Below are positions 15,380 through 46,561 of a stretch of DNA of 64,000 nt, in pieces. The number at the start of each line of letters is the position of its first letter. Within the stretch, counting starts at the first letter, position 1. This stretch comes from a virus, in the IMG/VR virus record IMGVR_UViG_3300046501_000233, positions 44,081 through 108,080 of that record; one strand, 5' to 3'. The translations under genes and the position numbers were made by a program. Under the pieces are notes generated by a model, which did not search any database, had not been told where the DNA came from, and was given only the letters and a program-made list of their open reading frames with translations.

Positions 15380-15691
15380 TTATGCAGCGCTGCGCAATGC
15401 CTCGGGCTCGATCACCGTGTACTGGGTGAAGGTCTCGGGCTTGCAAAATTCTATGATGCCGTCCTCGTGGAGGAGGACGATGTCTCCTGCGATGCAGGAG
15501 AGGATGCCGAAGGGGGAGAGCGTCGAGAACCCGCCCTTGTTGTTGATTTGCAGCTCACCCGACTGGATGCGCTCGATCAACCACTGCGGCGGCGTGTCGT
15601 CAGCAATCTGACCCCAGAGAGGCAACTTGAAGGCTTGGACAATCGAAAGTCGTTCGAGCAGCTTCACGGGCACTCCATTTGCATTCTGCAT
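15380..15691 (-). CDS. Hypothetical protein (probable start GTG 15667)
   Basis: 'GDIVLLHEDG...CKPETFTQY' pattern seen in many phage small proteins; GGAG before GTG 15667. Confidence 0.6.
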   Translation of the reverse strand: MQNANGVPVKLLERLSIVQAFKLPLWGQIADDTPPQWLIERIQSGELQINNKGGFSTLSPFGILSCIAGDIVLLHEDGIIEFCKPETFTQYTVIEPEALRSAA

Positions 15692-15693
15692 GA

Positions 15694-15723
15694 CTTATAC
15701 GCACGGTTGGGCGCATTTGTCAA
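15694..15723 (-). promoter_or_regulatory. Sigma70-type promoter
   Basis: TTGACA (15723-15718), 18-nt spacer, TATAAG. Confidence 0.65.
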
Positions 15724-15903
15724 CCCCTGTAGAGCAAAAAGCAAAACAAAATGCAAATGAGTTCGAACTGTGGTCAGTTCTTGGCCGCAATGCGGAAAAT
15801 AAACCACGCAACCAGGGCAAAGGGTGTCATCAGCCCGAGACCAACGGCGAGGAGAACGATGCCGGCCGCCTTGCGGGCGGGGCTGATCTTGACGGGGGGT
15901 GCT

Positions 15904-22871: not shown

Positions 22872-22943
22872 TGGCACCGGCGTAGGGTATCGAACCCTCT
22901 GACCGAGGTTTTGGAGACCTGGCCGCGACCTACGCTCGCCGAT
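22872..22943 (-). tRNA. tRNA-Trp(CCA) with shortened D-arm
   Basis: Acceptor ATCGGCG/CGCCGGT, anticodon loop CTCCAAA, T-loop TTCGATA, encoded G-CCA end. Confidence 0.75.
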
Positions 22944-22956
22944 GTGTTGATGAATT

Positions 22957-23122: not shown

Positions 23123-23198
23123 TGGCTGGGAAGGCAGGACTCGAACCTGCGACTCTCTGATTAACAATCAGGCGCTCTACCAACTGAGCTACAACCCA
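23123..23198 (-). tRNA. tRNA-Asn(GTT)
   Basis: TAGCTCAGTTGGTAGAGC D-arm, anticodon loop TTGTTAA, GGTTCGAGTCC T-arm, G-CCA end; two U-U mismatches in acceptor stem. Confidence 0.88.
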
Positions 23199-29606: not shown

Positions 29607-29848
29607 CAAATTGAAAATCCCGATCGGGAAGAAATGCCGAGACCGACAAACTCTTCCCGATCGGGAGCAGCCCGTGATCGTGCCAACCTCATGTCGCCTT
29701 GCCCTCACAGTCGCGGCGTTGAAGCGGCGGACTGGATCAGCATGGGGTTTGCGGGGCCGGACACCGCCCAATGTCCTGGTTGATAGCCAGGCCACGATCG
29801 CGGGGCAGTTGGGGACCAGTTCCCTCATCGCGAGGTGCGCCGATCCTT
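29607..29848 (-). ncRNA. Structured leader/sRNA ending in terminator-like hairpin
   Basis: Long-range stem CCCGTGATCGTG/CACGATCGCGGG enclosing sub-hairpins; perfect 15-bp inverted repeat TCCCGATCGGGAAGA followed by TTTT; directly downstream of a promoter. Confidence 0.55.
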
Positions 29849-32381: not shown

Positions 32382-33301
32382 TCTCTACTCTTATTATTTT
32401 AGCATTTTCATTTGCGTTCCTGTCTGTGTACCCATAGATTGAATTCAAGAGAGAGACGCGGCGGCCACGGCGGCCACTCTCTAGGGGCAAGCGGTGACGC
32501 TTCCCTCCCATCTGCGGGATAGAGGCTAGGCGAAAGGAGATTGTTCTAGGTTGCTAGGTTGCAAGTATGCAGTAGCGAAAATGAAGTCATGAGCGCCTAG
32601 TCGCGTTCCCCCTAGGGGGCATGACAGATTGAGTAGTGAGCGAAAGCAATCCGTGCAGTGCAAGGCGGACCAATGGCGGACACGCGCAAGCGTAGGTTTC
32701 CGGCGGGATGCAATGAGACTGGCAGGCAATGGCCTTCAATGGCCACTAGGGCAATCGAGTTTCGCGCGGGCATGAGACGCGGCCGACGACGAGTCGGATG
32801 AATACTATCGGAAAGCCCTATTCAGTTAGGTAAGCCGGTAGCAACGCGGGCGGACATTACGCCATGAACCTTGTACGGGCAGGTAACCAATCCTGTTTCC
32901 ATGCATTTCATGCGGCGATCTATTGCGAGACGATAGACTGCTAGGCCTCTCATGGCGTGGTGCAAACCGTGAAAATCGAAACCCTGTTGCAATGCCAAGC
33001 TTTGGGCAATTCGATTTTCTGACAGGTACAGCGCTCAATTCATAGCTTGACCATAGGCCAAAACGTATCGCTTTCGCCACGCCGTTTGCGTGGGGCTTAC
33101 GCTTGGAAATGTGGCCATTGAACTAGCCTTGTCCGACTCCCTGTTTCACAAAAACCCCTATCCCTAAGCCAACAGAGTTCGAGCGTCGCTTCAACCCGCG
33201 CTCGGACTCTGTCTGTGCTTTGCCATCTCGGCAAGTCCACACGGTGCATTTGCCCGGATGGCAATCAAGCCATACCGCACACCCAATGGAGTACACTTCC
33301 C

Positions 33302-33995: not shown

Positions 33996-34340
33996 ATGCT
34001 CCCATCGCCCAACGTGTTCCTCCAAGTCCACCACGACGGCGCATGGCTCACCCCTCGCGACAACCACGGCAAGCGGCTGACCTACGTCATGTCGCGGGCT
34101 CTGGCGCGTGAGTTCGTCAAGGCTGGACGCAATGTCCGGCTGGTCTGGATCGAAGGCGGCGCAACCGCTTGGGATCTGCACAACGGCGCCAAGCTCACCC
34201 CTCCCCCCTCGCACGTCAAGGCGAGGCCCCTGCCGGTCATCCGGCTGAAGCATACCCTCGGACGGGTCGGCAAGCTCGACAAGTCCGGCAAGATCGGAAG
34301 CTGGCTCGGCCCCATGATGCGCGGCGCGCCCTCCCTCTAA
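33996..34340 (+). CDS. Hypothetical protein
   Basis: GAGG RBS, codon bias. Confidence 0.6.
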   Translation: MLPSPNVFLQVHHDGAWLTPRDNHGKRLTYVMSRALAREFVKAGRNVRLVWIEGGATAWDLHNGAKLTPPPSHVKARPLPVIRLKHTLGRVGKLDKSGKIGSWLGPMMRGAPSL

Positions 34341-34347
34341 TTCCAAT

Positions 34348-34452
34348 CAGGTGACGGTCAGGCGTGAAGGTACGTCCTGATTAACAGGCAATGTGGTCGC
34401 AAACGCCGGATGGCTACCATGCACGTTCGATCCGTGCCCTGACCGTCACCTG
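34348..34452 (+). ncRNA. tRNA-like RNA in an extended 15-bp closing helix
   Basis: GGTCAGG/CCTGACC acceptor-like stem stacked on a perfect T-arm GCACG-TTCGATC-CGTGC; CCTG-ATTAA-CAGG arm; long variable arm. Confidence 0.6.
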
Positions 34453-34497
34453 CCCCTCTCCGAAACCATCGACTCTCCCAACGCCACAGGTGTGTCC

Positions 34498-34686
34498 ATG
34501 ATGACCCAGGCTGAAGCACGTCAACGTCTCTCCATCAACCGCATGTCGCTGCGTCGCTCCCCCGGCGGGGACTGGCGCGTCGCATTCGCCGACATCCGCG
34601 ATAACGAGGCATCCGCCTACTACACGGACGACCTCGAAGACGCGGTCATCACCGGTGCCGATATGCGCCGTCGCAATCGGAGCTGA
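34498..34686 (+). CDS. Hypothetical protein
   Basis: 'EASAYYTDDLEDAVIT' pattern common in phage early genes. Confidence 0.6.
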   Translation: MMTQAEARQRLSINRMSLRRSPGGDWRVAFADIRDNEASAYYTDDLEDAVITGADMRRRNRS

Positions 34687-41811: not shown

Positions 41812-41875
41812 ACACAAGAGATAGCCGGAAGGATTCCCCCGTCCGCCGGCTCTGCTGCACCCCAAAGGATGCAGT

Positions 41876-41963
41876 GCGGTTGGAGGGAAACCTGCTTCGC
41901 TGACGCCAGTCTCCAGCTGGCTGTAGGGCGAGGTGGTGGAGAGAGCACTCGCGAACCGCACCA
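41876..41963 (+). ncRNA. Cloverleaf-like RNA ending in ACCA
   Basis: GCGGTT/AACCGC closing stem followed by A-CCA; arms AGG-GAAA-CCT, GCCAG-TCTCCAG-CTGGC and GCGAG..CTCGC. Confidence 0.45.
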
Positions 41964-46466: not shown

Positions 46467-46561
46467 GGTTAGAACGGGTTAGCACACCGCGAATGCAAAT
46501 GCAAATATCGCTTGCATTCGCGTTTGCATTTCCATAGACCGTGAAAACGAAAGGACAGCCC

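Follow-up and report, generated by a model that had tools for sequence, protein, structure and literature searches.

A perfect 15-bp inverted repeat encloses a tRNA-like acceptor/T-arm half between two small genes of a phage: a candidate RNA processing signal

We have investigated a 105-nt element (34348-34452) located in a rightward block of small genes of the phage G000, IMG/VR record IMGVR_UViG_3300046501_000233, the full record of which is 108,080 bp. Coordinates are positions in the window, the 64,000-nt stretch of DNA that was analysed, unless they are marked as genome (C1) or as the contig of a relative. GC3 analysis indicates that the gene block starts at 33215, after a 1.3-kb non-coding divergent region; placement of the locus in the "early region", as given in an earlier note on this DNA, is presumptive. 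On the coding strand, the element occupies most of the spacer that separates two small genes of like orientation, the upstream stop codon being situated 7 nt before the inverted repeat which closes it (the clamp) and the downstream start codon 45 nt after the element (Table 1). Proteins encoded in the neighbourhood are small, unannotated and without an informative family. Open reading frames overlapping the element have GC3 values of 0.57-0.69 compared with 0.75-0.84 in the flanking genes, and as the GC3 signal is missing from the frames across it, the element is considered non-coding and a coding sequence was rejected. A scan for promoter-like and terminator-like sites detected none near the element, and an intrinsic terminator was rejected because there is no U-tract downstream and the scan found none there.

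Table 1. Positions of the genes and sequence features at the locus (window coordinates)
Feature	Position	Strand	Remarks
Upstream ORF, 114 aa, no family	33996-34340	+	GC3 0.84; weak homolog at the same position in G005
Outer 8 nt of 5' clamp arm, CAGGTGAC	34348-34355	+	Pairs with 34445-34452
SD-like AGGTGA inside outer 5' clamp arm	within 34348-34355	+	By sequence inspection; equated with CAGGTG of the downstream ribosome-binding site
Acceptor-like 5' strand GGTCAGG	34356-34362	+	Inner 7 bp of the helix
Weak D-position mini hairpin CGT-GAAGGT-ACG	34363-34374	+	Pair probability ~0.2
GGTA in the D-position loop	within 34363-34374	+	Compare tRNA G18 G19 U20 A21
Anticodon-position hairpin CCTG-ATTAA-CAGG	34376-34388	+	Pair probability ~0.8; 5-nt loop, anticodon unusable
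32-nt spacer, variable-arm position	34389-34420	+	Competing fold possible between its CGGAUGGC and the 5' strand and loop of the T-arm
Canonical T-arm, 5-bp GCACG/CGTGC, loop TTCGATC	34421-34437	+	G53:C61 equivalent present
3' clamp arm: CCTGACC (acceptor 3' strand), G (discriminator position), then TCACCTG	34438-34452	+	
Conserved leader/RBS cassette with ATCGACTCTCCCAACGCCACAGGTG	34453-34497	+	~90% identical in G010
Downstream ORF, 62 aa, phrog_19328-like	34498-34686	+	Synteny anchor

The two arms of the clamp, CAGGTGACGGTCAGG (34348-34362) and CCTGACCGTCACCTG (34438-34452), enclose 75 nt and are 100% complementary on the + strand, confirming the perfect 15-bp flanking helix described in the earlier note. 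By our own arithmetic, the expected number of such perfect 15-nt repeats within 150 nt is ~0.01 per 64 kb, and the only other perfect repeat of the same arm length within 250 nt in the 64 kb is a short hairpin at 29618-29666. The T-arm adjoins the 3' clamp arm with a gap of zero nt, so that the inner 7 bp of the helix (GGTCAGG/CCTGACC) stack directly on it, as that note had also stated, and with the 5-bp T-stem form a 12-bp acceptor/T stack composed exclusively of Watson-Crick pairs. A 7-bp acceptor stem on a 5-bp T-stem with a TΨCRANY loop, the arrangement expected of a tRNA, is thus present. The acceptor stem and T-arm are intact, 24 paired nt plus loop with 0 mismatches, whereas the D and anticodon arms are wrecked. 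An encoded CCA is absent, again as noted earlier, the acceptor strand being followed by GTCA. Shuffled genomes contain ~3.3 T-arm-like hairpins each when both strands are counted, from which the probability that a T-arm falls exactly at the repeat junction by chance is ~3e-5, given the repeat. The fold of the 121-nt region surpasses those of 200 of 200 shuffled sequences (z = -3.75). The acceptor/T-arm half is non-random, with a geometry far beyond chance. The fold containing the T-arm (-48.8 kcal/mol) ties with a competitor in which the T-arm is unfolded (-48.9 kcal/mol), and owing to this competing pairing the T-arm pair probability is only ~0.16 (RNAfold).

The earlier note interpreted the locus as a tRNA-elbow mimic or tRNA-like RNA, a description which fits the acceptor/T-arm half but not the rest, as the remaining cloverleaf is not significant. 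The anticodon-like arm reported there does exist as a hairpin; however, its stem is 4 bp and its loop 5 nt, compared with 5 bp and 7 nt in tRNA, and U33 is absent. The 8-9 linker is also absent, and the D-like mini hairpin could not be upheld as a tRNA feature, since its 3-bp stem is weakly paired where a tRNA would have a D-arm with U8 and A14. A long variable arm, also claimed previously, is not predicted to form.

ARAGORN, together with Rfam at gathering scores, detected only a tRNA-Asn gene at 23123-23198 and did not call the element. A permissive Rfam scan of a 301-nt slice (E<=10) yielded no match to tRNA, tmRNA or Y-RNA models, the check that the earlier note had proposed for its tRNA and Y-RNA readings; the sole matches were two spurious ones, to a snoRNA and a miRNA. 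ARAGORN called the element, as a poor "tRNA-Leu", only when the threshold was lowered to 80% (-ps80), and as the same genome gives 54 calls at 85%, this call is at the level of noise. Approximately 1,900 single interior deletions were tried in silico and none yielded an ARAGORN tRNA call. Combined, the lack of a proper anticodon loop, of a tRNA call and of rescue indicates that the element cannot decode. The degenerate ochre-type (UUA) tRNA put forward in the earlier note, whether as a suppressor or another decoding tRNA, was therefore rejected, there being no 7-nt anticodon loop, U33 or D-arm, no covariance-model hit at E<=10, no ARAGORN call at standard settings and no single-deletion rescue.

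Two other classes of tRNA-like RNA were considered. The tRNA-like domain of tmRNA resembles the element in having a two-ended acceptor stem on a T-arm, a reduced D-arm and a replaced anticodon arm. However, tmRNA is ~360 nt long, compared with 105 nt here, and the element lacks the tag frame, pseudoknots, G3:U70 pair and CCA; its third acceptor pair is T:A. The ARAGORN tmRNA search, even at a relaxed threshold, and Rfam gave nothing. YrlA and other Y RNAs likewise mimic tRNA with a T-arm and a D-like loop and have a long stem formed by their 5' and 3' ends (Chen et al. 2014, PMC4201824); the acceptor-like stem of Mycobacterium smegmatis YrlA measures 7 bp, and this RNA is a substrate of RNase P to which CCA is added (PMC4201824). 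In YrlA, however, the terminal stem takes the place of the anticodon stem and includes the GNCGAA motif to which Ro binds, a closed hairpin forms the acceptor stem, and rsr is the neighbouring gene (PMC4201824). The element shares none of these features: its terminal stem continues the acceptor stem and not the anticodon stem, and the GNCGAA(N)G motif is absent within ±30 nt. No match to Ro60/Rsr (TROVE, PF05731) was obtained at E<=1 in the whole 108-kb genome, nor any to DUF2828 in the genome, and an ACAGCA handle was not found. Every defining feature tested thus fails for a YrlA/Ro60-partner RNA, and the Y-RNA-like alternative of the earlier note was abandoned.

The tRNA-like parts do not trace to one source. 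An identical T-arm 17-mer was detected in 19 viral contigs, where it mostly belongs to genuine phage tRNAs, including 7 tRNA-Asn. The acceptor 7-mers with a TTCGATC loop correspond to the tRNA-Phe acceptor stem in several phyla (Planctomycetes, Actinobacteria and others), and none of these tRNA-Phe genes has the T-stem of the element. As no tRNA has both the acceptor 7-mers and the T-arm, no donor can be named and a specific donor tRNA was rejected. The interior is colinear with the phage's own tRNA-Asn at GGTA (D-loop), CG-CCTGA, TTAA-CAG and GTCGCA (variable/T border), with p ~0.04 relative to shuffles. The anticodon-position hairpin aligns with CCTGATT[GTT]AA[T]CAG of this tRNA, the anticodon GTT being missing from the element. 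Alignment of the interior to a panel of tRNAs did not single out Asn. The likenesses hint, weakly, at descent from a tRNA gene. The element is 11 kb from the tRNA-Asn gene. Genes for tRNA-Asn, Trp, Gly, Met, Cys and Glu vary between records of the phage group, which appears to gain and lose tRNA genes freely.

Additional tRNA-like sequences were observed in this phage and its relatives. A non-canonical tRNA-Trp(CCA)-like gene, missed by default ARAGORN and Rfam, is present ~180 nt from tRNA-Asn at ~22875-22944 (-) of the window (C1:66955-67024). The copy in G010 is nearly identical, its T-stem differing by a compensatory change from GAGGG/CCCTA to GATGG/CCATA, and at the homologous place ARAGORN calls a tRNA-Trp in G008 and G413 while G005 has a similar, uncalled copy. 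In the corresponding gene block of G008, a 300-nt spacer contains a 110-nt segment (G008:C1:67290-67399, +; L187:2754-2863) closed by GACTGGG/CCCAGTC, a stem abutting a perfect T-arm, GGAGG-TTCGAGC-CCTCC, then ACC. It receives no ARAGORN or Rfam call, its fold is no better than shuffles (z = -0.21), and it could be a second tRNA-like relic or chance. Metagenome contigs L197, L198, L201 and L202 contain the 3' half of a tRNA-Phe, from the anticodon loop onward, preceded by ~40 nt of non-tRNA sequence which still starts with the acceptor strand GGTCAGG. Integrative elements with pseudo-tRNAs at their att sites may account for this arrangement; genomes also contain many tRNA-Phe 3' halves of the plain kind. 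A cloverleaf ending in ACCA, with an 8-bp closing stem and a fold marginally better than shuffles (z = -1.97), is located at window 41874-41961 (+). Inverted motifs of the TTGCAAAT/ATTTGCA type are repeated in spacers of G000, G005 and G008, with sites at window 15676-15759 and 46493-46535 and at L187:2690-2730 and 2880-2935, and are possibly operator or promoter sites of the phage group.

The terminase was used to pick ~10 long related virus records, and the 62-aa protein served as the anchor for the syntenic spacer in G005, G008, G010, L205, L207 and phage BDU-MI-1. The element is absent from this spacer in all six, and the spacer is 30-90 nt in 5 related records. In G008, L205 and L207 the spacers are ~30-60 nt and share a C-rich motif past the stop codon. 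G005 contains CCAATCCCCTC, in which the two G000 flanks are joined contiguously (CCAAT|CCCCTC), indicating that the 105 bp in G000 are a precise insertion, and the inverted repeat forms its exact boundary. By comparison with these records the element is a lineage-specific insertion. The earlier note had stated in advance that a T-loop not conserved in homologous phage loci would tell against its reading, and every locus that could be reached lacks the element.

The nearest relative, G010, in which the 62-aa protein is 74% identical and the leader ~90% identical, carries a different hairpin at the same site. This 63-nt hairpin (L186:1389-1451; z = -3.26) has a perfect 11-bp base stem, CCCTCACGGTG/CACCGTGAGGG, and is flanked by the direct repeat CCCATCCC. 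The likeness between the G000 and G010 inserts is not significant, 15-24% of shuffles scoring equally well. Homology of the two inserts was therefore rejected, and the apparent 'compensatory' changes in their stems are no evidence. The presence of a different strong hairpin in G010 suggests that the intergenic site favours a stable stem.

Copies elsewhere were not detected. A covariance model built from the element (R1) found only itself in 15 virus records, that is, in 0 of the 14 related records. BLAST revealed no copies in 401 Rhizobiales genomes, a set not targeted at the genus Bradyrhizobium, none in 72,556 plasmids and 50,697 phages, and a single copy in the phage's own genome. Pattern scans of viral contigs and metagenomes produced no copy, the metagenome matches being only tRNA-Phe genes or their 3' halves. 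The element thus appears to be an orphan singleton, without a homolog among the records searched.

A tyrosine integrase is encoded at genome C1:22618-23064, and a tRNA-Met(CAT) 3' half ending in CCA just downstream of it (region C1:22618-23340) is likely to be attP; an integrase together with attP indicates that the phage is temperate. The element itself was rejected as attP, as the integrase and true attP are 55 kb away and the element has both acceptor strands. The 127-bp "terminal repeat" on the 108,080-bp record is, judging from its length, probably the assembly overlap of a circular sequence. Genomes of Bradyrhizobium and the Bradyrhizobium phage BDU-MI-1 encode homologues of the 62-aa protein, which points to this genus as host. 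The closest homologues of the protein are P0002 (81% identity) and P0004.

The leader sequence ATCGACTCTCCCAACGCCACAGGTG is common to G010 and, ahead of a different gene, to G005. The SD of the downstream gene, CAGGTG, recurs as the first 6 nt of the clamp (34348-34353). The 3' end of the clamp, CACCTG (34447-34452), is complementary to this SD and could pair with it instead of with the 5' arm, and this predicted pairing may constitute a translational switch. A six-codon frame, GTG AAG GTA CGT CCT GAT TAA (34364-34384, +), begins 9 nt past the SD-like AGGTGA of the clamp and terminates within the ATTAA loop; the helix sequesters this SD-like sequence, and the frame is probably due to chance.

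We tentatively favour the reading that the element is a tRNA-derived, non-decoding signal acting in cis in the processing or stability of a polycistronic transcript. The element would be transcribed within the polycistronic mRNA, where the 15-bp helix and the stacked 5-bp T-stem would provide ~20 bp of dsRNA, presumably as a target for RNase III or a block to 3'-exonucleases. Opening or trimming of the helix could then expose the acceptor/T minihelix to RNase P, with a cut at ~34355/34356, and to RNase Z or exonucleases near 34445. The message upstream would thereby be separated from that downstream, and a ~90-nt tRNA-shaped by-product would be set free. Gating of the maturation of a putative RNA by the flanking helix, as proposed in the earlier note, is possible. 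In favour of a processing or stability signal, preservation of the acceptor stem and T-arm beside wrecked D and anticodon arms is unlike even neutral decay, and the fold (z = -3.75), the non-coding character and the intercistronic site on the coding strand are in keeping with it, as are the weak signs of tRNA descent and the strong stem at this site in G010. Precedents are the plant-mitochondrial t-elements described below and M. smegmatis YrlA. On the other hand, the element is a singleton absent from related records, and a recent insertion would account for the perfect stem without selection. The low T-arm probability also counts against this reading, as do two features of the helix: 15 bp is short for a classic RNase III site, and full pairing of leader and trailer is expected to hinder RNase P.

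Hairpins cleaved by RNase III, whose sites comprise about two turns of dsRNA, are found between the early genes of phage T7 and in rRNA precursors. These have in common with the element a strong intercistronic hairpin or a double-stranded stem in which the flanks of a structured RNA are paired. In contrast, the stem of the element is only 15 bp (20 with the T-stem), its interior is tRNA-like, an internal loop of the T7 R1.1 type is absent and cleavage is hypothetical. A second parallel is provided by the t-elements of plant mitochondria, non-canonical tRNA-like structures in mRNAs which were found via the motif GGTTCRANYCC and direct cuts by RNases P and Z (Forner et al. 2007, PMC1920247). The corresponding sequence of the element, CGTTCGATCCG, agrees with this motif at 9 of 11 positions; the other two are paired with each other (52:62) and have co-varied. 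The T-arm motif is thus present within a non-canonical tRNA-like fold, here intercistronic and on the coding strand. The acceptor/T part is kept in t-elements as in the phage element, and t-elements are thought to direct the cuts which define mRNA ends (PMC1920247). They differ in being organellar, in having ends that were mapped experimentally and in lacking a long leader-trailer seal, whereas the processed ends of the phage element are predicted.

The main rival to a processing or stability signal, because nothing shows conservation, is a functionless relic, which is quite possible and nearly as likely. A tRNA-Asn-like phage cassette would have landed between copies of the repeated leader and then decayed, the 15-bp helix being an accident of insertion, such as might result from template switching or from capture within a pre-existing hairpin of the spacer. 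Such an origin is consistent with a single-copy element which no relative has, the 30-90 nt spacer of the 5 related records, the colinear tRNA-Asn remnants without their anticodon triplet and the free gain and loss of tRNA genes in the phage group. The identity of CAGGTG in the clamp and in the SD of the repeated leader agrees with it as well, as part of the stem may derive from a leader copy. However, neutral decay should not spare 31 nt of acceptor and T-arm while destroying the remainder, and the 8 extra, perfectly complementary flanking bases do not come with a tRNA gene. Several events must moreover be assumed, as no single deletion restores a tRNA.

It is unlikely that the element is a small tRNA mimic acting in trans, in which the clamp would serve only for processing and the RNA, once released, would have a separate function. 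Such an RNA might associate with a phage protein, or act as a decoy or inhibitor of a host enzyme that binds tRNA or of a defence nuclease that targets it. The half of tRNA which faces enzymes is kept, and the D-position loop contains GG that could make the docking contact with the T-loop. Stable, non-decoding tRNA-like phage RNAs do exist: T5 RNA1 (NC_005859 30501-30644) is annotated as 'tRNA-like stable RNA with unknown functions', and both it and T4 species 1 RNA resemble the element in being non-decoding and in having a tRNA acceptor stem and T-arm. However, T5 RNA1 is located in a tRNA cluster and has a good D-arm, a variable arm and open ends, whereas the element is 11 kb from tRNA-Asn, sealed and without a proper D-arm, and no sequence similarity between the two was found. 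A trans-acting role is further opposed by the absence of the element from every relative and by the want of an evident partner, the genome having neither a Ro60/TROVE nor a DUF2828 gene, the element no ACAGCA handle and the neighbourhood only small unannotated proteins. A broader version, slightly more doubtful still, is that the element is one case of an undescribed, widespread phage device in which a dsRNA clamp holds interchangeable, often tRNA-derived, trans-acting cargo RNAs. The cargo would be excised from an early transcript, to serve for example as a decoy for tRNA-binding enzymes or tRNA-targeting defence nucleases, and the G010 hairpin would be another cargo in the same slot.

An element acting at the level of DNA, namely a miniature inverted-repeat mobile element, a REPIN-like hairpin or a recombination target, is improbable. 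The insertion is precise, the joined flanks being contiguous in G005, its boundary coincides exactly with the inverted repeat, and another hairpin insert, flanked by the direct repeat CCCATCCC, occurs at the same spot in G010. Tyrosine integrases commonly target the T-arms of tRNAs, and the T-arm of the element, 5-bp inverted repeats with a 7-bp spacer, would correspond to the core site of a tyrosine recombinase. However, the G000 flanks, CCAAT and CCCCTC, are not repeated and a target-site duplication is absent, and the genome contains one copy, with none in the 401 Rhizobiales genomes, the plasmids, the phages or the pattern scans; both marks of a MITE/REPIN-type repeat, multiple copies and a target-site duplication, are thus missing here. 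The integrase and true attP are distant, and the G000 and G010 inserts are not significantly alike. Finally, chance resemblance, in which an ordinary intergenic hairpin happens to contain a T-arm-like stem-loop, is very improbable: relaxed tRNA criteria produce dozens of false calls in this GC-rich genome, a T-arm with abutting 7-9-bp helices arises by chance in coding DNA of the relatives and loose rules give a 7-bp 'minihelix' in 27% of shuffled genomes, but a T-stem of Watson-Crick pairs only, with a perfect TTCGATC loop, abutting a 15-bp helix has the joint probability given above, and the colinear tRNA-Asn remnants add to the improbability.

As a single unconserved copy, the element carries modest weight. 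If it is only a relic, it shows that tRNA cassettes enter and decay in a recombination-prone leader-repeat region of Bradyrhizobium phages. Punctuation by tRNA-shaped structures is established in mitochondria and in a few eukaryotic long RNAs, but there is, to our knowledge, hardly any record of it in phages. Should the element prove to be processed, it would represent a bacterial virus using tRNA-shaped punctuation inside an mRNA, and would add to hints that many phage non-decoding tRNA look-alikes are missed by tRNA finders and Rfam.
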